From an uncultured Candidatus Binatia bacterium (GTDB lineage Bacteria > Desulfobacterota > Binatia > UBA9968 > JAJDTQ01): DNA of 64,000 bases. Numbering within the stretch: position 1 is the first letter of the stretch; every line of letters starts with the position of its first letter. The notes under the pieces are model-generated. The model was given only the letters and a program-made list of their open reading frames with translations. It was not told the DNA's origin and searched no databases. This document shows positions 17,219 through 26,134 of this stretch, one piece after another. The stretch is taken from NCBI GenBank assembly GCA_965242525.1, contig OZ251459.1, positions 1,088,001-1,152,000 of the forward strand, given 5' to 3'. Position numbers and translations under genes: made by a program.

Positions 17219-17983
17219 ATGACGACAGGTTTCGACGGCAAGGCAATCATCGTCACGGGCGGCGCCCGGGGCATCGGCCGGGTCTATTCCAACGCGCTGG
17301 CCAAGGCCGGCGCCAGGGTCGTGGTGTCGGACGTCCTCGACGGGGAGCCGTGCGCTTCGGAGATACGGGAACGGGGGCAGGAGGCAGTGTTCGTCAAGGC
17401 CGACGTGACCAGTGAGGACAGCGTGACTGCGCTGGCCGCGGCCGCACACGACCGCTTCGGGCGCATCGACGGCCTGGTGAACAACGCCGCGATCTTCGCC
17501 AACCTCCGCTACGCGCCCTTCGACGACATCACCGTGGCCGAGTGGGACGCGGTGATGGACGTGAACGTCAAGGGCGTATGGCTGGCCTCCCGCGCGGTCT
17601 ATCCCTACATGAAGGAGCAGGGCGCCGGCAAGATCGTGAACATCGCCTCCGGCGTGCCCTTCAAGGGCGTCCCGATCTATGTCCACTACACCGTGTCCAA
17701 GGGCGCGGTGGTGGCGCTCACCCGGGCCCTTGCCCGGGCCGCGGGCAAGGACGGCGTCTGCGTCAACGCGGTGGCGCCGGGCCTCACCCGCAGCGAAAGC
17801 CTGCTGGAAGTCCGCGGCGCCCTGGTGGACGAGGACGACATGCCCCAGATCCAGAGCCGCGCCATCCCCCGAAGCCAGTACCCCGAGGACATCGTCGGCG
17901 CGGTCCTGTTCTTCCTGTCGGACGCATCGAGCTTCATCACCGGCCAGACCCTGCTGGTGGACGGCGGTTCGTACATGCACTGA
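17219..17983 (+). CDS. SDR family oxidoreductase
   Basis: TGGARGIG, NNAA, YTVSK. Confidence 0.93.
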   Translation: MTTGFDGKAIIVTGGARGIGRVYSNALAKAGARVVVSDVLDGEPCASEIRERGQEAVFVKADVTSEDSVTALAAAAHDRFGRIDGLVNNAAIFANLRYAPFDDITVAEWDAVMDVNVKGVWLASRAVYPYMKEQGAGKIVNIASGVPFKGVPIYVHYTVSKGAVVALTRALARAAGKDGVCVNAVAPGLTRSESLLEVRGALVDEDDMPQIQSRAIPRSQYPEDIVGAVLFFLSDASSFITGQTLLVDGGSYMH

Positions 17984-18098
17984 GGTTCTCGGAGCAGGAC
18001 TGCGGCGGTTTTTTTTCGATCCCGATGCCCTTGAACCCGAAAGTTGTTGGCGTTCCTGCCGATGGTTCCTTTCATGGAAACATGACGGGAGGACCATC

Positions 18099-18509
18099 AT
18101 GACCGATTTCGAGATGGCGTCGCTGGCCGTCCGAATCCTGGTCGGGGCGGGTCAGATCGCAGTGGTGTGGTGCGGGATCAGGGCCATGCTGCGGGTTACG
18201 GCCGACCGGGAAACCCAGGGCAAGGAGCAGGCCGAGGCGTCCAGACAGCAGCACGTGGAAGTGATGGCGGCTGCGGACCGGCGGCACGCCGAAGCCATGC
18301 AAGCCGCCGACCGGCAACACACCGAGAACATGAAGGAATCCGAGCGGCGACATGCCGAGACCATGCAGGCTGCCGACCGGCAACACGTCGAGAACATGAA
18401 AGCATCCGAACGGCAGCACGCCGAGACCATGGCCCTCCTGGATGCGCAACGCCGGGCCCTGGAGGCCCTCATCGAGCGCACCGCGCCGCCAAGGGAAAAC
18501 CGTGTGTAA
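18099..18509 (+). CDS. Single-TM protein with His-containing 11-aa repeats, copy 1 (136 aa)
   Basis: GGAGG RBS; MTDFEMASLAVRILVGAGQIAVVWCGIRAM… then 6 [AS][DER]R[RQ]H.E.M.. units, ending LDAQRRALEALIERTAPPRENRV. Confidence 0.85.
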   Translation: MTDFEMASLAVRILVGAGQIAVVWCGIRAMLRVTADRETQGKEQAEASRQQHVEVMAAADRRHAEAMQAADRQHTENMKESERRHAETMQAADRQHVENMKASERQHAETMALLDAQRRALEALIERTAPPRENRV

Positions 18510-18571
18510 CGAAAGCCGCACAACCACCGGAAGCGCCGTTCCTTTCATGGAAGCATGACGGGAGGACCATC

Positions 18572-19111
18572 ATGACCGATTTCGAGATGGCGTCGCTGGC
18601 CGCCCGAATCCTGGTCGGGGCGGGTCAGATCGCAGTGGTATGGTATGGGATCAGGACCATGCTGCGGGTCACGGCCGACCGGGAAGCCCAGGGCAAGGAG
18701 CAGGCCGAGGCGTCCAGACGGCAGCACGTGGAAGTGATGGCGGCTGCGGACCGGCGGCACGCCGAAGCCATGCAAGCTGCCGATCGGCAACACGTCGAGA
18801 ACATGAAAGCATCCGATCGGCGACATGCAGAGACCATGGCTGTCCTGGATGCGCAACGCCGGACCTTGGATGCATCTGAGCAGCAGCACACCGAGACCGT
18901 GAAATCATCCGAGCGGCAACACAGCGAGACCGTGAAGTCATCCGAGCAGCAACACACCGAGACCGTGAAGGCATCCGAACGGCAACACACCGAGAGAATG
19001 AAGGCATCCGAGCGGCAACACGCTGAGACCATGGCTGTCCTGGATGCGCAACGCCGGGCCCTGGAGGCTCTCATCGAGCGCACCGCGCCGCCAAGGGAAA
19101 ACCGTACGTAA
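18572..19111 (+). CDS. Single-TM His-repeat protein, copy 2 (179 aa)
   Basis: Same N- and C-termini as copy 1; 9 His units plus an internal partial duplication of LDAQRR. Confidence 0.85.
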   Translation: MTDFEMASLAARILVGAGQIAVVWYGIRTMLRVTADREAQGKEQAEASRRQHVEVMAAADRRHAEAMQAADRQHVENMKASDRRHAETMAVLDAQRRTLDASEQQHTETVKSSERQHSETVKSSEQQHTETVKASERQHTERMKASERQHAETMAVLDAQRRALEALIERTAPPRENRT

Positions 19112-19159
19112 CGAAAGCTACGCAACCACCGGAAGCGCCGACAACTGCTTGACGAAGCA

Positions 19160-19211
19160 TTGCGAGTATCAAAGTGGTTGGCTATATTGACTAGTTGAAT
19201 AAACTGGTTGA
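19160..19211 (+). promoter_or_regulatory. Putative TA promoter/operator
   Basis: TTGCGA-17-TATATT followed by two ACTRGTTGA repeats. Confidence 0.45.
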
Positions 19212-19229
19212 TTTCGGTAGGAGATTCCC

Positions 19230-19469
19230 ATGATCGAAGTCGGCGCGTTCGACGCGAAGACGCATTTGTCTTCGCTCCTCGAGAAAGTCTCGCAGGGCGA
19301 GGAAGTACTCATCCGCAGACGAGGCGTGCCCGTTGCCCGGCTCGTGCCCGTCCACCGCACCGAAGAGGCGCAGGTAGAGGAAGCCATTGCCGCATTGCGC
19401 GCCCACCGCACGGGTATGAAGCTGGGCGGCCTCGACTGGAAGGAACTGCGCGACGGCGGACGGCGGTGA
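19230..19469 (+). CDS. Phd/YefM family antitoxin
   Basis: MIEVGAFDAKTHLSSLLEKVSQGEEVLIRRRGVPVARLVP; AGGAGA RBS. Confidence 0.93.
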   Translation: MIEVGAFDAKTHLSSLLEKVSQGEEVLIRRRGVPVARLVPVHRTEEAQVEEAIAALRAHRTGMKLGGLDWKELRDGGRR

Positions 19470-19480
19470 GCGTCTTCGTT
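19466..19480 (+). pseudogene. Stump of a PIN/VapC toxin gene (about 5 codons)
   Basis: GTGA overlap with the antitoxin stop gives MSVFV, like the start of a PIN domain (xxVLD), then unrelated sequence. Confidence 0.45.
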
Positions 19481-19724
19481 CCGGCAGTTTGCCAATGTTT
19501 GCTCCGTCTGGTCAGCTAATACCGGCGCCATTGAGGAAACTGGGCTTGGGCTTGGGAAGTTCGAGACGGTGTAGCCCGAAGACCTTGCATGATCCCGGAC
19601 ACCAACATCGAGGGTCTCGGAGCAGGGCTCCCGCGGTTTTTTCGATCTCGATGCTCTCGAACCCGAAAGTTATTGTCGTTCCTGCCGATGGTTCCTTTCA
19701 TGGAAACATGACGGGAGGACCATC

Positions 19725-20036
19725 ATGACCGATTTCGAGATGGCGTCGCTGGCCGCCCGAATCGTGGTCGGGGCGGGTCAGATCGCAGTGGTATGGTGCG
19801 GGATCAGGGCCATGCTGCGGGTTACGGCCGACAGGGAAACCCAAGGCAAAGAGCAGGCCGAGGCGGCCAGACGGCAGCACGTGGAAGTGATGGCGGCTGC
19901 GGACCGGCGGCACGCCGAAGCCATGCAGGCTGCCGAACGGCAGCACGCCGAGACCATGGCCGTCCTGGATGCGCAACGCCGGGCCCTGGAGGCTCTCATC
20001 GAGCGCACCGCGCCGCCAAGGGAAAACCGTACGTAA
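19725..20036 (+). CDS. Single-TM His-repeat protein, copy 3 (103 aa)
   Basis: Same termini as copies 1 and 2; 3 His units. Confidence 0.85.
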   Translation: MTDFEMASLAARIVVGAGQIAVVWCGIRAMLRVTADRETQGKEQAEAARRQHVEVMAAADRRHAEAMQAAERQHAETMAVLDAQRRALEALIERTAPPRENRT

Positions 20037-20111
20037 GCTCCGTTCTTGGTCCACGCCGAAACGGCGCTCCACACGCTCAAGGCTGCCGATGGTTCCTTCC
20101 ATGGAAAATTC

Positions 20112-20394
20112 GGCTCTTCAGGAATTCGTGTGGGTAAGGCAGGAAGGAAAGGGAAGCGACGTCTCCGCGGACACTCACCCGTCATTCCCGCAAACGCCCC
20201 ACCTTCCGTCATTCCCGCGAAAGCGGGAATCCAGACCTTGCGAGCAAACCCCGTGGACGCCCTGACGAGAGGGTTTGTACAACGAGAGCGAGGAAACTGG
20301 ATGGATTCCCGCTTTCGCGGGGATGACGAGGCGAGGCTTTCGCGGGGATGACAGGATGGGGAGTGTCGCAACCCACACGAATTCCGGAAGCGCC
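20112..20394. mobile_element. MITE (family B) containing an inverted pair of CGTCATTCCCGCGAAAGCGGGAATCCA REPs
   Basis: 24-bp TIRs GGCTCTTCAGGAATTCGTGTGGGT / ACCCACACGAATTCCGGAAGCGCC. Confidence 0.8.
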
Positions 20395-20502
20395 CCGAAG
20401 CCTTGCCACTCGAAAGCCCGGCAACCGGCCTTGCACAGGCAGGGCCTGCCGTGTATTTCTTGGACGCTGTGAGGAAGGTATTCCGCCAAGTCAGGAGTTG
20501 AC

Positions 20503-22203
20503 GTGCCGTCGCTGCAATTCAAGGGGAAGGTGTTCGTGGAGAACTTCCATCTGGGGGTTCCGTTCCACGAGTTGATCCCGGTGCGCGGCAAGGGGCTGGG
20601 CAGGAAGGCGAGCCTGCACGACAACCTGGTGATCGAGGGGGACAACCTTGCCGCGCTGAAGGCGCTGCTGCCCACCTACCACGGCAAGGTGAAGTGCATC
20701 TACATCGACCCGCCCTACAACACCGGCAACGAAGGCTGGGCCTACAACGACCGGGTGAACTCCCCCATGATGCAGGACTGGTTCGGCAAGGTGGTGGACC
20801 GGGACGACCTGACCCGCCACGACAAGTGGTGCTGCATGATGCTGCCCCGGTTGAAGCTGCTGCGCGAACTGCTGCGGGACGACGGGGCCATCTTCGTGTC
20901 CATCGACGACAACGAGGTGCATCGGCTGCGGTCCTTGATGGATGAGGTGTTCGGGGAAGACAACTTCGTCGGCATGATCGCTTGGAGAAACGTCACAGAC
21001 AACAACCCAACCAACATCAGTGTCGAGCACGAGTACATGGCATGTTATGCAGCATCCAAGGATCGACTCGAGACGGTATGGCAGTCCACGCTTCCGATTC
21101 AACAAAAACTGATCGACGTGGGCAACGAGTTCGTTGCCAACTATCTCGATCAGGAGGAACGCCAAGCAGAGTACACCAAGTGGTTCAGCCAAAATCGGAG
21201 CCAACTTCGTCCACTCGACCGTTACAAATACATAGATGCTCAGGGCGTCTATACTGGTAGCCAGAGTGTCCACAACCCTGGAAAGGAAGGTTACCGGTAC
21301 GACGTTATTCATCCCAAGACGGGGAAGCCGTGCAAACAACCTTTGATGGGGTATCGTTTTCCACTGGAGACGATGCAAGAGATGCTAAGGCAAGAACGAA
21401 TCCTGTTTGGAGAAGACGACAGCAAGATCATCGAGATCAAACTCTATGCCACTGAATACCGATCCAAGTTGCCCAGTGTCATTGATCTCGATACGAGACT
21501 GGGATCGTATGAACTCAAGGACATCTTTCCCGAACACAAGCGAGCTTTTGACTTTCCAAAACCTTCCCAATTGATTCATGACCTCGTTTCATTCGCCACC
21601 GACAAGGACTCCATCATCCTCGACTCCTTCGCCGGCTCCGGCACTACCGCCCAGGCGGTCCTGGCGCTGAACCGGGAGGACGGCGGCAACCGCCGTTTCG
21701 TGCTGGTCGAGTGCGAGGACTACGTGGATTCGATCACCGCGGAGCGGGTCCGGCGGGTCATCGCGGGCGTGCCCTCCGCAAAGGATGCGTCCCTCAAGGC
21801 CGGTCTTGGCGGCACCTTCAGCTACTTCAAGCTGGGGCGCCCCATGCGGCGGGAGTCCATGCTGGGCGGGGCGAAGCTGCCGAGCTACGAGAAGCTGGCC
21901 GGGTACGTCTTCTTTACCGCCACGGGCGAGGAGTTCGAGCCCGAAAAGCTGAATCGGAACAGGTGGTTCATCGGCAAGAGCCGGCTGTACGACGTGTTCC
22001 TCATCTATTCGGAAGACGTGGACGAGCTCAAGGACATGGCCTTGACCCTGGACGCCGCTCGAAAACTGTCCCGGGGCCAGCGCAACAAGCTGGTCTTCGC
22101 GCCCACCAAGTACGTGGAGCGGGAGTTCCTGCACCAGTACCGCATCACGTTCCAGCAACTGCCCTTCGAGATATACGAGGCGGTGGAAAAGCTCGAACGA
22201 TGA
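20503..22203 (+). CDS. mod: Type III R-M methyltransferase (Mod), system 1
   Basis: YIDPPYNTG (motif IV) before DSFAGSGTT (motif I), with a central lower-GC TRD; AGGAG RBS. Confidence 0.92.
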   Translation: MPSLQFKGKVFVENFHLGVPFHELIPVRGKGLGRKASLHDNLVIEGDNLAALKALLPTYHGKVKCIYIDPPYNTGNEGWAYNDRVNSPMMQDWFGKVVDRDDLTRHDKWCCMMLPRLKLLRELLRDDGAIFVSIDDNEVHRLRSLMDEVFGEDNFVGMIAWRNVTDNNPTNISVEHEYMACYAASKDRLETVWQSTLPIQQKLIDVGNEFVANYLDQEERQAEYTKWFSQNRSQLRPLDRYKYIDAQGVYTGSQSVHNPGKEGYRYDVIHPKTGKPCKQPLMGYRFPLETMQEMLRQERILFGEDDSKIIEIKLYATEYRSKLPSVIDLDTRLGSYELKDIFPEHKRAFDFPKPSQLIHDLVSFATDKDSIILDSFAGSGTTAQAVLALNREDGGNRRFVLVECEDYVDSITAERVRRVIAGVPSAKDASLKAGLGGTFSYFKLGRPMRRESMLGGAKLPSYEKLAGYVFFTATGEEFEPEKLNRNRWFIGKSRLYDVFLIYSEDVDELKDMALTLDAARKLSRGQRNKLVFAPTKYVEREFLHQYRITFQQLPFEIYEAVEKLER

Positions 22204-24731
22204 TCCTCAAGGAATACCAGAAGCAGGCGCTGGAGACGGTGCAGAAGTTCCTGGAGCAGCTATCCGAGTGGCGCGGGAAGGCCGAGGCGGTCATGGAGGT
22301 GGCGCCGGACCTGCCGGTGGACTGGGTGGGGAAGGCGTGGAGCAACACGGCGCCGGGCCGGGCCTACCTGCCGCGCAGGAACGGCCTGGGCGAGCCGCTG
22401 CCGGCGTTCTGCCTGAAGATCCCCACCGGAGGCGGCAAGACCCTCCTGGCCACGAAGGTCATCGACCTGGTGAACACCCGCTTCCGGCGGCGGCAGACCG
22501 GGCTGGTGCTGTGGATCGTGCCCAGCGCCCAGATCTACGACCAGACGCTGAAGGCATTGAAGGACCGGGACCACCCCTACCGGCAGCAACTCGACGTGGC
22601 CTCCGCGGGCCGCACCCTGGTGCTGGAGAAGACCACCGGCTTCGGACCGCAGGACGTGCGGGAGAACCTGTGCGTGTTGTTGCTGATGCTGCCATCGGCC
22701 AACCGGGAGACCCGGGAGCAGCTCCGGATGTTCCGGGACAGCGGCGGCTTCGACCGCTTCTTTCCGTCGGACGACGACCCTTCGGCCCACGAGGCGCTGC
22801 TGCGGGAGGCGCCGAACCTGGACACGTTCGAGCGGGCGGGCGGGGTGTGGGGGAAACCGGCCAAGACCTCCCTGGGCAACGCGTTGCGCCTGCTGCGACC
22901 GCTGGTCATCCTGGACGAAGGCCACCGGGCCTACAGCCGCAACGCCAAGGCGACCCTCGAAGGGTTCAACCCGTGCATGGTCGTGGAGTTGTCCGCCACG
23001 CCGCCGCGGGAAGCCAACGTGCTGGTGGAGATCTCCGGCCGGGCGCTCGACGCCGAAGAGATGATCAAGCTGGACCTGCACATCGCCAACAAGGCCAGGG
23101 CGAGTTGGCAGGACACGCTGCTGGCCGCGGTGGAGCACCGAAACTCGCTGGAAGCCCGGGCGCGGGAGCACGAGGCCGAGACCGGCGAATACATCCGCCC
23201 CATCTGCCTCGTCCAGGTGGAGCGCACGGGCCGGGAACAGCGCCGGGCCGGGGTCATCCACGCGGACGACGCCCGGGACTACCTGTTGACCTGTCCCGGA
23301 ATCCGTCCCGAGCACGTGGCGGTGAAGACAAGCCAACGGGACGAGTTGAAGGAAGTGGACGAGGTGGGCGGCCTGCTGTCGCGGGACTGTCCCATCCGTT
23401 TCATCATCACCAGGCAGGCGCTGCAGGAGGGCTGGGACTGCTCGTTCGCCTACGTCCTCGCCATACTCGCCAACCCCGCTTCCGCGAGCGCATTGACGCA
23501 ACTGGTGGGCCGCATCCTCCGCCAGCCCCACGCCAGGAAGACCCGGGTCCCGGCGCTGGACGAAAGCTACGTCTTCTGCTTCCAGCGCCGGGGCGCGGAC
23601 CTGTTGCAGGAGGTGCGCAAGGGGTTCGGCCTGGAAGGGTTGCAGGGACTGGAAGGCAAGGTGGTGGAGGACCCCGAAGGACCGGTGGCGCCCAGCAAGC
23701 CGGTGGTGACGCGACAGCGGCCTCCGTACCGGAACGCCGCCCGGGACCTGGTGCTGCCGGCGTTCATGGTGCGGGACGGCCGGGAGTGGCGGTTGGTGCA
23801 TTACGAGGCCGACATCCTCTCCCGCGTGCGCTGGGACGAGGTGGACGTAAGCCCGCTGTTCGACTTGGCGCTCAGCCGGGAGGGAAGCGGGGACTTCACC
23901 CTCAGCACCGGGCTGGACGCGGGCCGGCTGCTGGCCGATGGCGAGACCGCGGCGACCGTGGCCGAAGAAGGCGTCATCGACTACTACTTCGCCGCCAGCC
24001 ACCTGCGCGACGTCATGCCCAACCCGTGGCGCGGCGCGGAAGCGGCCCGGCGGGTGTTCGACGAATTGCTCGGGAAACGCCCGCGGGAGCAGGTGGCCGC
24101 CAACTACCTGTTCGTGCTGGAAGAGTTGCGCAAGCAACTGGAGCGCGAACGGGACAGGCTTTCGCGGCGGGTGTTCGAGGAGATGCTGCGGTCGGGGACC
24201 CTGCGCTTCATCGTAGTGACCGACGACCTGCAATGGAACCGGCTGCCGCGCACCATCGAGACGCCGGACGCGAAGCAGGCCAACCGGGAGGACGGCGGCG
24301 CCTACCAGTTCAACCTGTTCGACCGGACCAACGAAGACGACTTGAACGGCCTGGAGAACAAGGTGGCCACCTACCTGGACCGGCAGGAGCGGCTGTTCTT
24401 CTGGTACCGGAACCGCGCCCGCAGGGACTACTACGTGCAGGGCTGGAAACCCCGGCGCATCTACGCGGACTTCATCGTGACCCTCAGGCCCGACGAGCCC
24501 GACGCAGAGGACGAATACCACCGGGTCTTCGTGCTGGAGACCAAGGGCGTCCACCTGAAGGGCTCCGAGGACACCGCCTACAAGCGCTCGGTGTTCGACC
24601 TCTGCTCCAGGCACGCCCGGAAGACGGACTGGTCGGAGTTCGTGCCGGCCATGCGCAACAAGGTGGTGCGCTTCGAGGTCGTGGACGAAGAGGAATGGCA
24701 GCAGCGCCTGAACGCGATGCTGGCGGCGTAG
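22200..24731 (+). CDS. res: Type III R-M restriction helicase/endonuclease (Res), system 1
   Basis: IPTGGGKT, LDEGH, LQEGWD, QLVGRILR and C-terminal ADF…LETKG nuclease; ATGA overlap with mod. Confidence 0.9.
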   Translation: MILKEYQKQALETVQKFLEQLSEWRGKAEAVMEVAPDLPVDWVGKAWSNTAPGRAYLPRRNGLGEPLPAFCLKIPTGGGKTLLATKVIDLVNTRFRRRQTGLVLWIVPSAQIYDQTLKALKDRDHPYRQQLDVASAGRTLVLEKTTGFGPQDVRENLCVLLLMLPSANRETREQLRMFRDSGGFDRFFPSDDDPSAHEALLREAPNLDTFERAGGVWGKPAKTSLGNALRLLRPLVILDEGHRAYSRNAKATLEGFNPCMVVELSATPPREANVLVEISGRALDAEEMIKLDLHIANKARASWQDTLLAAVEHRNSLEARAREHEAETGEYIRPICLVQVERTGREQRRAGVIHADDARDYLLTCPGIRPEHVAVKTSQRDELKEVDEVGGLLSRDCPIRFIITRQALQEGWDCSFAYVLAILANPASASALTQLVGRILRQPHARKTRVPALDESYVFCFQRRGADLLQEVRKGFGLEGLQGLEGKVVEDPEGPVAPSKPVVTRQRPPYRNAARDLVLPAFMVRDGREWRLVHYEADILSRVRWDEVDVSPLFDLALSREGSGDFTLSTGLDAGRLLADGETAATVAEEGVIDYYFAASHLRDVMPNPWRGAEAARRVFDELLGKRPREQVAANYLFVLEELRKQLERERDRLSRRVFEEMLRSGTLRFIVVTDDLQWNRLPRTIETPDAKQANREDGGAYQFNLFDRTNEDDLNGLENKVATYLDRQERLFFWYRNRARRDYYVQGWKPRRIYADFIVTLRPDEPDAEDEYHRVFVLETKGVHLKGSEDTAYKRSVFDLCSRHARKTDWSEFVPAMRNKVVRFEVVDEEEWQQRLNAMLAA

Positions 24732-24766
24732 CTTGGCGGCCGTCGCACGAGGGCAGGGGAGAGGCC

Positions 24767-26134
24767 ATGAGCGAGAGACACACACTGCCGTACCATGACA
24801 TGCGGGGCCTCATGGCGTTGCTGGAATCCGAGGGGCAGCTTCGGCGGATCCGCAAGCCGGTGGATGCGCGCCATCTCCATACGCTGCTGGCCCAGGCCGA
24901 CACCGCGCTGTTGATGGAGGACGTCGAGGGCTATGACATACCGGTGGCGGGGGGACTGGTGGGGTCGCGCCAGCGGGTGGCCCTGGGGCTCGGCTGCGAC
25001 CAGCGGACCCTGGGGCGCAGGTTCATGGAAGCTCTGGACGACCCGGTGGAGGCGGAGGCGGCGACGGACGGTCCGTGCCAGGAAGTGGTGAAGGTGGGCG
25101 ATGAGGTGGACCTCACGGAGTTGCCCATCCCCTTGCAACACAGGAAGGACGGCGGACCGTACCTCTCGGCCGGCGTCTCGGTGTCCAGGGACCCGGAAGG
25201 GCGGCGCAACGCCGGGTGCTACCGGCTCATGTACCGGACCCCGCGGGAGACCGGCATCGACCTGGTGTCGCCGTCGGACATGCGCTTCAGCTACGAGGCA
25301 GCGCTCGGGCGGGGCGAGCCGCTGCCCATCGCCGTGGCCTTCGGCGTGGGCACGCCCGAGCTCATCGCCGCGGCCTACAAGGCGCCGCCGGGGTACGACG
25401 AGTTCGCGGTGGCCGGGGCGTTGTACGGCAGGCCGGTCCCCCTGGTGAAATGCAAGACCGTGGACCTGGAGGTCCCCGCCCATGCGGAGGTCGTCCTGGA
25501 AGGGGAGATCTCCACCGATGGCTGGACCATCGACGAGGGCCGTTACGGGGACTTCACCGGGCACCAGTGCTCCATCCGCTGGAACCCGGTGTTCCGGGTC
25601 AAGGCGGTGACGCACCGCAAGCGCCCGATCCTCCAAACCATCCTGATGCCGTGGGAGAACGACTGGCTGGAGGCCCCGCCGCTGGAGGCCGCGGGATGGC
25701 GCGCCCTGCGCGAGGCGAGCGTCAGGACCGCGGCGGTGTACGCCACCCCGGGAAGCGCGTGCTACTGGCACCTCTACGCCGCCGTCCACAAGCGGCCCGG
25801 CGAAGGCAAGAACGCGCTCCTGGCGCTCATGTCCCTGCACGCGGTGAAACTGGTGCTGGTCACCGACGCCGATGTGGACTTGACCGACCCCATGGCGGTG
25901 GAGCGGGCCATGGCCTTCCGGGTCCGGCCCGACGAGGACGTGGTCATCGTCTCCGGCGCCCGGGGCAAGCACCTGGACCCGACCCTCAACGCCTCCCGGC
26001 TCGCCAGGGGTTCGCTCCCCACCACTTCCAAGATGGGCATCGATGCCACCATCCCCGAGGACGTGGACCCCGCGGAGTACGAACGGTTGGAGTACCCGTT
26101 CATGGACCGGGCCAAGCTCGAAGACTTCCTGTAG
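24767..26134 (+). CDS. UbiD family decarboxylase
   Basis: DLTELPIP..HRKDGGPY, NAGCYR, EVPAHAEVVLEG, EGRYGDFTG, SKMGIDAT. Confidence 0.92.
   Translation: MSERHTLPYHDMRGLMALLESEGQLRRIRKPVDARHLHTLLAQADTALLMEDVEGYDIPVAGGLVGSRQRVALGLGCDQRTLGRRFMEALDDPVEAEAATDGPCQEVVKVGDEVDLTELPIPLQHRKDGGPYLSAGVSVSRDPEGRRNAGCYRLMYRTPRETGIDLVSPSDMRFSYEAALGRGEPLPIAVAFGVGTPELIAAAYKAPPGYDEFAVAGALYGRPVPLVKCKTVDLEVPAHAEVVLEGEISTDGWTIDEGRYGDFTGHQCSIRWNPVFRVKAVTHRKRPILQTILMPWENDWLEAPPLEAAGWRALREASVRTAAVYATPGSACYWHLYAAVHKRPGEGKNALLALMSLHAVKLVLVTDADVDLTDPMAVERAMAFRVRPDEDVVIVSGARGKHLDPTLNASRLARGSLPTTSKMGIDATIPEDVDPAEYERLEYPFMDRAKLEDFL

Follow-up and report, generated by a model that had tools for sequence, protein, structure and literature searches.

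Subunit b of the ATP synthase (AtpF, PF00430) has its N terminus outside the membrane, crosses it with a single helix and continues as a long cytoplasmic hendecad helix rich in Ala, Arg and Glu, which pairs in parallel to form a dimeric stalk. YhcB/ZapG (DUF1043) and PspB are likewise small bitopic proteins with a cytoplasmic coiled coil; they are encoded by single-copy core genes and have neither repeat units nor a His/Met motif. SilE and PcoE, secreted periplasmic proteins of the sil and pco operons, contain no Cys and carry repeated His and Met residues at a distance of three or four positions along their helices. Group 3 LEA proteins, apolipoproteins and synuclein form 11-mer repeat helices that are soluble or amphipathic at lipid surfaces and have no membrane anchor. 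Here, we compare with these proteins the products of three closely spaced paralogous genes in a 64,000-nucleotide stretch of DNA (the window, to whose first letter positions refer unless stated otherwise) from an uncultured Candidatus Binatia bacterium (contig OZ251459.1; genome G000). Our favored reading, to which we assign a probability of about 0.5, is that they are self-associating bitopic proteins with the N terminus outside and the C terminus inside (N-out/C-in). Their cytoplasmic, register-preserving hendecad/heptad rod would carry an Ala/His/Met stripe, the number of repeat units would set the distance of a terminal zipper, and unequal recombination would generate the length variants.

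The three proteins, P0001 to P0003, share their N terminus (MTDFEMASLAxRIxVGAGQIAVVWxGIRxMLRVTADRE) and their C terminus (LDAQRRALEALIERTAPPRENR[VT], with an end that reads (M)AxLDAQRRALEALIERTAPPRENR). Each is composed of one N-terminal membrane helix, a series of 11-residue units in register and the closing ALEALIERTAP. In units such as ADRRHAEAMQA and SERQHAETMAV, His occupies a fixed position and is followed by Glu two and Met or Val four residues later, and counting by the H-x-E anchor gave six, nine and three units. A preliminary description of the window had already recognized three near-identical genes with a common helix and C terminus, the same three unit numbers, and a fixed His followed by Glu two residues later; the open reading frames (ORFs), the shared termini and the anchor count bear it out. 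At the DNA level, Tandem Repeats Finder reported 33-bp arrays in gene 1 (18276-18431, 4.7 copies, 73% matches), gene 2 (18768-19033, 8.2 copies, 75% matches) and gene 3 (19895-19958, 1.9 copies, 83% matches), with a 66-bp period scoring higher (83-84%). Gene 2 contains four units, a second copy of the pre-terminal segment AETMAVLDAQRRTLDA and then five units of the TETVKS subtype. We read the three genes as recent tandem duplicates of one accessory gene.

Searches for homologs recovered 169 proteins at E <= 0.01 among 263 candidates, with the same architecture and none of them named by any source. A profile search of 1.84 billion representatives yielded 517 cluster representatives at E <= 1e-3 (164 at E <= 1e-10), all between 66 and 242 aa long. 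Since the same architecture recurs in 169 proteins and 517 representatives, the pattern exceeds chance. The family consensus runs from MTxFEIASL through optional Gln-rich heptads, IGAGQIGxVWYGIRAM and the variable repeats to DRRHAExMAAL..Q..ALETLIERTAP. This genome (4.23 Mb, 67% G+C) encodes 14 family genes at 11 loci, a count that excludes one of 15 ORF matches as an overlapping ORF in another frame.

Library comparisons did not connect the family with a described one. P0001 to P0003 had no match near the cut-offs in Pfam or NCBIfam, and their best matches in PHROGs and PADLOC, weak and compositional in nature, reached E values of only 0.018 and ~0.001. A profile search of the PDB with the family gave a best E of 0.28. 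When 123 diverse members were scanned against Pfam, the commonest family was DUF6479, found in six at E <= 0.01. Scores in the ESM Atlas were at most 0.87, to clusters of small phage hypotheticals, which we treat as a lead only. A search for longer proteins carrying domain fusions returned four matches, none with an added known domain, and relatives were absent from the 2.9 million viral contigs and from the phage and plasmid collections searched. In the parts of the literature accessible to a search for the motif strings LIERTAP, RHAEAM, RHAETM and IERTAP, no publication on the family appeared, nor did the titles and abstracts found for hendecad, histidine and membrane coiled coil describe one. 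The family is real, unnamed and new to the libraries searched, in agreement with its earlier designation as uncharacterized, as there is no significant match in Pfam, NCBIfam, PHROG, PADLOC or PDB.

To describe the repeat, we compiled a logo of 672 units from 249 proteins, anchored on H-x-E. Arg occupied position -1 in 81% of the units, Met position +4 in 91% and Asp or Glu position -3 in 61%; because Met and Arg were not anchors, their frequencies are independent evidence for an R-H-x-E-x-M unit. Among 251 members, H-x3-M is present in 247 and H-x-E in 244, the soluble part is free of Cys in 240, and the rod is 16% Arg. Successive H-x-E anchors were spaced most often by 11 residues (212 times), followed by 18 (75), 7 (74) and 29 (16), and then by 25, 22 and 36. 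On a helix of 3.63 residues per turn, 395 of the 426 spacings hold His within 40 degrees, a limit that only 23% of the integers from 6 to 36 would satisfy. The length of the repeat differs among members, and the helical register is always kept. A single unit is found in 82 of 256 members, and some paralogs of this genome carry His-free EAQRRQ repeats with an 18-residue period.

An 11-residue periodicity gives an 11/3 helix. On such a helix, a single stripe would be made up of A(-4), H(0), M(+4) and A(+3), bordered by D/E(-3) and R(-1), and E(+2) and R/Q(-2) would lie on the face opposite His. With unit spacings of 11, 18 or 7, all His, Met and flanking Ala residues would fall on that single stripe. 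The preliminary description had envisaged stacked His/Glu sites; since Glu would point away from His in this geometry, the stacked stripe is expected to be Ala/His/Met instead.

AlphaFold2 predicted one continuous helix both for P0003 (residues 3-95; predicted local distance difference test score, pLDDT, 86.5, with an alignment) and for P0002 (residues 3-171; pLDDT 93.1, from the single sequence). Along this uninterrupted predicted helix, the core residues recur every 11 positions or in combinations of 7 and 11, as is characteristic of hendecads. The earlier suggestion of a membrane-anchored, length-variable protein thus held, with one membrane helix, one long predicted helix and a varying number of in-register units. 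The membrane helix conserves G-x-G-Q...W-x-G-I-R-x-M. At the other end, a conserved leucine-zipper-like segment, (M)AxLxxQxxALExLIERTAP, occupies the C terminus, and the last 20 residues read as an a/d zipper of canonical form (L-x2-Q-x3-L-x2-L-I) that has a conserved polar Gln at its core and closes with T-A-P.

Across 251 members, the net charge of the N-tail has a median of -2, with Lys and Arg absent from 161 tails, and the stretch of 15 residues that follows the membrane helix carries a net positive charge in 230. By the positive-inside rule, which is well established, these charges predict an N-out/C-in topology with the rod in the cytoplasm. As a separate observation, some paralogs (Table 1) have two to five copies of Gln-rich heptads (ATLAYQQ, ATLDVQQ) before the membrane helix, in the predicted outside N-tail, so that protein length can vary on either side of the membrane.

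The charge statistics bear directly on the idea of a periplasmic stalk in the opposite orientation (N-in/C-out), with a rod that crosses the periplasm in the manner of TolA domain II or an i-spanin, or that reaches the envelope for host contact. i-spanins and TolA resemble the family in architecture, and the weak matches to PHROG spanins, together with a Cys-free soluble part bearing His/Met motifs, speak for this idea. Nevertheless, we consider it very unlikely: beyond the acidic N-tail and the positive flank, the sequence shows neither a signal peptide nor a lipobox, a rod with 16% Arg would be a poor export substrate, and no o-spanin, lysis or Tol-Pal genes were found nearby. The latter statement covers the 11 loci of this genome and 40 loci from other genomes, with gene calls from our own GC3 heuristic. 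At these 40 other loci, the scan comprised 139 neighboring proteins after exclusion of 13 of 53 loci as near-duplicate syntenic ones and of seven of 146 ORFs. A surface or host-contact role, one of the possibilities raised earlier, is likewise unlikely, because the topology predicted from the 251 members places the rod in the cytoplasm.

How, then, does the family compare with the proteins introduced above? AtpF is of similar size, but no homology was detected: a search of this genome with PF00430 returned two adjacent canonical atpF genes and nothing else, hhalign of the family alignment (A1) against AtpF gave a probability of 0.15%, and a weak PF00430 match occurs in one of the 123 members. 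Unlike atpF, the family genes lie outside the atp operon, number 14 and vary in length. YhcB/ZapG and PspB have the same architecture and predicted topology as the family, but neither gave a Pfam match in P0001 to P0003 or featured among the 25 commonest families of the 123 members. Rz-like i-spanins (PHROGs 1327, 2466 and 312; DUF2514) also combine an N-terminal membrane helix with a charged coiled coil and provide the best weak library matches. Their E values are only 0.018 to 0.00036, however, the predicted topology of the family is the opposite, and no o-spanin, endolysin, holin or phage context was seen at the 11 own and 40 other loci. In contrast to SilE and PcoE, the family is membrane-anchored, predicted to be cytoplasmic and without metal-resistance neighbors, and there is no sequence match. 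DUF6479 (PF20087), the only Pfam family that recurs across members, spans the membrane helix and the charged helix and is itself uncharacterized; it exceeds its cut-off in one homolog (26.1 vs 25.4 bits) and leaves P0001 to P0003 unmatched. Finally, one member weakly matches the Pfam family Apolipoprotein, with no homology detected, and the family differs from the 11-mer repeat proteins in its Ala/His/Met stripe and otherwise highly charged surface.

We next consider where the genes reside. Orthologs of the short-chain dehydrogenase/reductase (SDR) gene to the left of the trio are present in 24 other genomes of the genus, and in 21 of these the ortholog directly adjoins the UbiD-family gene, which indicates that positions 17984-24796 of the window are an insertion. 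Two more genomes carry different DNA there, and a family gene occupies the site in 2/25 same-genus genomes; the SDR-UbiD junction is an integration hotspot. The island at this junction measures 6.8 kb in this genome and ~11.3 kb in its closest relative (G418, SDR gene 95% identical), which has a single family gene of 158 aa with seven H-x-E units. The N-terminal 150 nt of the family gene are 82.7% identical between the two genomes, compared with 95% for the flanking genes. At the carB-lepA site, a family gene is found in 2/26 same-genus genomes, again these two, as very different alleles of 151 and 91 aa; the gap elsewhere is ~30 nt, so the insertion corresponds to a single gene (~400-630 nt). 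One insertion of ~600 nt is a single family gene plus its own leader. Upstream of hisS, 1/28 same-genus genomes has a 2.1-kb insertion that combines an AAA-ATPase_like/PDDEXK_9 gene with a family gene. All three loci compared with same-genus genomes (SDR-UbiD, lepA and hisS) are recent insertions. The hisS insertion (L071:3355-5470; G000 C1:1024877-1026991) is absent from the closest relative, and its AAA-ATPase_like and PDDEXK_9 gene had no PADLOC match.

Copy number varies as well. Tandem arrays of two to four family genes occur at 15/53 loci from other genomes, and at one syntenic locus of a Nitrospinota-like lineage the number ranges from 1 to 3. In a maximum-likelihood tree of 50 members, the trio of the window and the G418 gene formed a clade (support 100/97) that was sister to an alphaproteobacterial array (96/90), and five other paralogs of this genome formed a separate clade (96/92); given the short sequences, the tree is only suggestive of exchange between phyla. 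The Nitrospinota-like arrays (L020, L021, L026, L031, L039 and L057) contain two old paralog types in kept order. Each of their family genes has its own conserved upstream block, with TTGCTT-17-CATATT-like hexamers (by eye) and the ribosome-binding site GGAGAGGAAAAG. Paralogs at two loci of this genome are preceded by a repetitive extragenic palindromic (REP)-like sequence, GCTACGCTCRGGACGAACGGGG, which is also found upstream in G418 (Table 1).

Building on the observed architecture, periodicity, distribution and insertion status, we infer topology, oligomerization and a role as stalk or tether as follows. The unnamed family would comprise bitopic inner-membrane proteins with a short acidic N-tail outside, one membrane helix and a long cytoplasmic alpha-helix. 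These proteins may associate with one another in parallel, with contacts at the polar Gln of the membrane helix, along the Ala/His/Met stripe and in the terminal zipper. The resulting stalk, ~10 to 25 nm long, would hold the conserved C-terminal segment at a fixed depth beneath the membrane. Where units or whole gene copies recombine unequally, the number of units (3, 6 and 9 here, 7 in G418) and of copies would change. The genes themselves would act as self-contained cassettes, each with its own leader, that sponge-associated bacteria of several phyla acquire and lose as part of their flexible genomes.

Several points weigh against this reading. The case for self-association is one of sequence logic, the positive-inside topology is a prediction and not a measurement, and no RNA data set was listed among those that contain the locus. 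The Glu at +2, kept as unit anchor in 244 of 251 members and located opposite the His face, is unexplained by a simple two-stranded core. Clustering of all neighboring ORFs revealed no neighbor conserved beyond lineage-specific synteny, and neither a fusion nor a conserved neighbor indicates a partner. Moreover, fast turnover and frequent residence in defense-gene islands would also fit a role in genetic conflict. Restriction-modification, toxin-antitoxin or nuclease-type genes neighbor the family at five of the 11 own loci (the Type III system of the window, GmrSD_N/HicB, HsdR, an Eco57I-type methylase and the AAA-ATPase/PDDEXK_9 gene), and restriction-modification genes do so at three of the 40 other loci. 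At the remaining six own loci, the neighbors are housekeeping genes (ssb; carB/lepA; dnaB/thiE; tct transporters; radA/dinB; and an HbpS-like gene). Transposases occur at three of the other loci, a terminase-like gene and TrfA at one each and an antitoxin at none; their remaining neighbors are metabolic or of no assigned kind.

The genetic-conflict alternative would make the proteins stand-alone membrane effectors directed against phages or mobile DNA, of a superinfection-exclusion, abortive-infection or holin-like type. The location in the flexible genome, the fast turnover, the neighbors at the five own loci and the presence of the family in several phyla of one habitat all suit such effectors, as does the divergence of the N-terminal 150 nt from the closest relative against well-conserved flanks. 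There are also the weak matches to Rz-like spanin PHROGs and the Atlas clusters of phage hypotheticals (score 0.87), one of which has Holin_BhlA on 28% of its members. Yet the PADLOC and PHROG matches are not significant, viral, phage and plasmid collections hold no relatives, the neighbors at the 40 other loci are mostly metabolic, and 14 constitutive-looking copies are hard to reconcile with a lethal membrane effector. Overall, we regard this alternative as decidedly unlikely. The preliminary description had listed a toxin or defense effector among the possible roles; such a role is not supported, given the lack of a PADLOC match, the absence of an antitoxin from all 40 other loci and the 14 copies per genome, each of which, where the upstream DNA was read, stands behind its own leader. 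The family is accessory and tends toward variable spots, and it is no component of a restriction-modification, toxin-antitoxin or known defense system.

A different explanation centers on the His/Met stripe itself. Each R-H-x-E-x-M unit, together with D/E(-3), may bind one soft metal ion (e.g., Cu(I)), heme or another cofactor, with the ligands lined up along one side of the helix or inside a bundle, so that unit and copy number would set the binding capacity. The near-universal H-x3-M and H-x-E motifs and the Cys-free soluble part are consistent with this proposal, as are the Met and acidic residues at their logo frequencies. On an 11/3 helix, His, Met and D/E(-3) would lie within ~65 degrees of one another. 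Amplification of units and genes is the outcome expected of dosage selection, one locus (L050) has a cupredoxin-like gene directly upstream, and one of 123 members weakly matches the Pfam family Metal_resist (E ~1e-3). However, the rod is predicted to be cytoplasmic, whereas His/Met Cu(I) sites are typically periplasmic, and its Arg content disfavors cation binding. Recognized metal-efflux or resistance proteins numbered 0 among the 139 neighbors scanned. The many single-unit members also count against a ladder of sites, and the His-free EAQRRQ repeats in paralogs of this genome imply that what repeats is the helix register, not the number of ligands. We therefore consider this explanation unlikely.

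A broader version of the same proposal, which we hold to be rather unlikely, is a habitat-specific, horizontally exchanged sponge-microbiome cassette that encodes a membrane-anchored parallel coiled coil, in which a core His-Met layer every 11 residues would bind a soft metal or cofactor, with capacity tuned by 33-bp units and copies. If true, the ladder would represent a novel type of metal buffer or sensor, cytoplasmic and tethered to the membrane, in at least five phyla within one host.

Some neighbors are lineage-specific and might hint at function. In L055 (4562-6306), the family gene shares 4 nt with an overlapping gene for a CdaA-type diadenylate cyclase; the cupredoxin-like gene of L050 (5308-6204) lies 60 nt upstream of the family gene; and a MarR regulator is encoded directly upstream in three Defluviicoccus-like metagenome-assembled genomes (MAGs; L023, L035 and L049). 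In the clustering of neighboring ORFs, SDR genes alone recurred beyond the syntenic groups, at 11 loci, but we rejected them as a conserved partner, as they are very abundant in these genomes and in the window simply flank the insertion site.

Within the island, genes 1 and 3 are preceded by ~115 nt of common DNA at ~90% identity, which closes with GGGAGG-N7-ATG in both copies (Table 1). The leader of gene 1 is conserved in locus L016; within this genome, four blastn matches confine the leader sequence to this one locus. Gene 2, which is preceded by a short spacer, is probably co-transcribed with gene 1, judging from this arrangement. Inside the leader of gene 3, a terminator-like hairpin at 19619-19631 is followed by a T-run. 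Both full leaders can form a further hairpin (18061-18098 and 19687-19724) in which GAUGGUUCCU pairs with the ribosome-binding region GGGAGGACCAUC, at -26 kcal/mol and z -1.79; 10 of 200 shuffles fold equally well. The stem is only partly kept in L016, by eye without compensatory changes, and a search for riboswitches and other known RNAs gave no Rfam match for the leader at E <= 1. The hairpin could be a translational control element or could reflect chance. We also considered a shared cassette boundary or recombination site and rejected it, as the leader is specific to this locus and GGTTCC..TTYCATGG, which occurs six times in the genome, is present at no family locus other than this one.

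Table 1 Features of the island and its flanks in the window, followed by related features elsewhere
Feature	Position	Strand	Remarks
SDR gene, left flank	17219..17983	+	Pfam adh_short_C2, E 3.1e-59
Leader of gene 1	17984..18098	+	T-run past SDR stop, conserved 5' region, GGGAGG, ATG
Family gene 1 (P0001)	18099..18509	+	136 aa, 6 units
Spacer before gene 2	18510..18571	+	Only the 3' 34 nt of the leader kept
Family gene 2 (P0002)	18572..19111	+	179 aa, 9 units, in-frame chimera of two unit subtypes
Sigma-70-like promoter match upstream of phd	19160..19188	+	TTGCGA-17-TATATT, 9/12 positions; consensus match only
phd/yefM antitoxin gene, orphan	19230..19469	+	Pfam PF02604, E 9.9e-11; NCBIfam phd_fam TIGR01552
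17-codon ORF overlapping phd stop	19466..19519	+	Read from sequence
Leader of gene 3	19606..19724	+	Duplicate of 17984-18098
Family gene 3 (P0003)	19725..20036	+	103 aa, 3 units
Partial fourth leader copy, orphan	20083..20107	+	GATGGTTCCTTCCATGGAAA; blastn 25 nt, 96% identity
Multicopy repeat similar to miniature inverted-repeat transposable elements (MITE) or REP sequences	20106..20420		480 blastn hits, merged into 199 genome sites
Type III Mod methyltransferase	20503..22203	+	Pfam N6_N4_Mtase; PADLOC MTase_III, E 3e-189
Type III Res restriction enzyme	22173..24731	+	Pfam ResIII; PADLOC REase_III, E 8.8e-171
UbiD-family gene, right flank	24797..26134	+	Pfam UbiD, E 2.4e-59
REP-like sequence	G000 C1:1208660-1208790; L107:700-770		Upstream of C1:1208205-1208660 (L072) and C1:2380292-2380804 (L073)
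Paralogs with N-tail heptads	G000 C1:1208205-1208660, 2380292-2380804, 1026523-1026882; L044, L058, L061		

The other genes of the island correspond to what had been described beforehand: an orphan antitoxin, a MITE and a Type III system stand alongside the family genes, according to Pfam and NCBIfam, blastn and PADLOC, respectively, and the comparison of the site among same-genus genomes, together with PADLOC, upholds the description of a hotspot with toxin-antitoxin and restriction-modification genes. We regard the phd antitoxin as an orphan because only a 17-codon ORF comes after it. This ORF is likely a remnant of the toxin gene, whose loss seems to have occurred at the start of the duplicated family unit, at ~19606. 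The DNA upstream of phd has a lower GC content. The MITE/REP-like element is built around palindromes of the ATTCCCGC..GCGGGAAT type. Over this element, summed contig depth in four metagenome runs was 100 to 1000x that of the flanks, indicating that it is abundant across the community. The contigs of these four runs are short and end within the repeats of the family genes, so that they give no unit number for other strains. As a carrier of the family genes it was rejected, since MITE-like sites lie within 2 kb of only 2/12 family positions.

Could the family protein instead be the toxin partner of the neighboring Phd, or a part of the Type III restriction-modification system? Proximity is what speaks for such a role, with phd between copies 2 and 3 and the restriction-modification genes next to them. 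However, gene 3 begins 256 nt past phd, behind its own duplicated leader and the terminator-like hairpin, and at the 40 other loci an antitoxin never neighbors a family gene. The islands of this genome and its closest relative share their left edge, a family gene with the same leader, and their right edge, Res, of which G418 retains a 69-residue remnant; their middle differs, with the Type III system here and a DrmMI/Type IIG-like gene, which fills most of that space, in G418. In the 3.8 kb compared around the SDR gene, G418 has the family gene without phd. The comparative data contradict a role as Phd partner or restriction-modification component, and we consider it effectively excluded.

Beyond this genome, the distribution of the family is narrow in one sense and wide in another. 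In an evenly drawn sample of the phylum, the family was found in 2/401 genomes, this one included. Within the class, it was present in 44/301 sampled genomes, confined to 4/119 genera (14/20 and 21/26 genomes in two of them), with up to 14 matches per genome; among the class-sample matches listed, about a fifth show one in-frame stop. All 53 loci from the species-representative collection stem from MAGs, whose titles name Binatia/Binatota, Alpha- and Gammaproteobacteria (including Defluviicoccus), Nitrospinota, Terriglobia and Thermodesulfobacteriota, or simply 'bacterium'. DNA near-identical to the locus was detected in 11 sequencing runs from five studies; in seven of these runs, the sampled words are represented to a minor extent only. 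The label 'sponge metagenome' applies to five of the 11 runs, and two of those contain 0.28 and 0.21 of the words. One paper lists SB06xx-series bins among sponge-associated Entoporibacteria, and another describes Binatota in sponges. A sponge-microbiome habitat is likely for the whole family.

Small bitopic coiled-coil proteins are common, and four traits make this family unusual among them. It has a near-invariant R-H-x-E-x-M unit in strict helical register, in numbers from 0 to 9; up to ~14 copies can occupy a single genome; the copies sit, as small inserted cassettes, in sites that are conserved otherwise; and the family is near-absent from sampled relatives of the host lineage, yet present in Alpha- and Gammaproteobacteria, Nitrospinota and others apparently in the same animal host. 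The natural versions with three, six and nine units, encoded side by side, offer a simple testable system that relates helix length or the number of His/Met sites to function. Taken as a whole, the family points to a function tied to life in the sponge, be it metal handling, membrane organization or conflict with phages.

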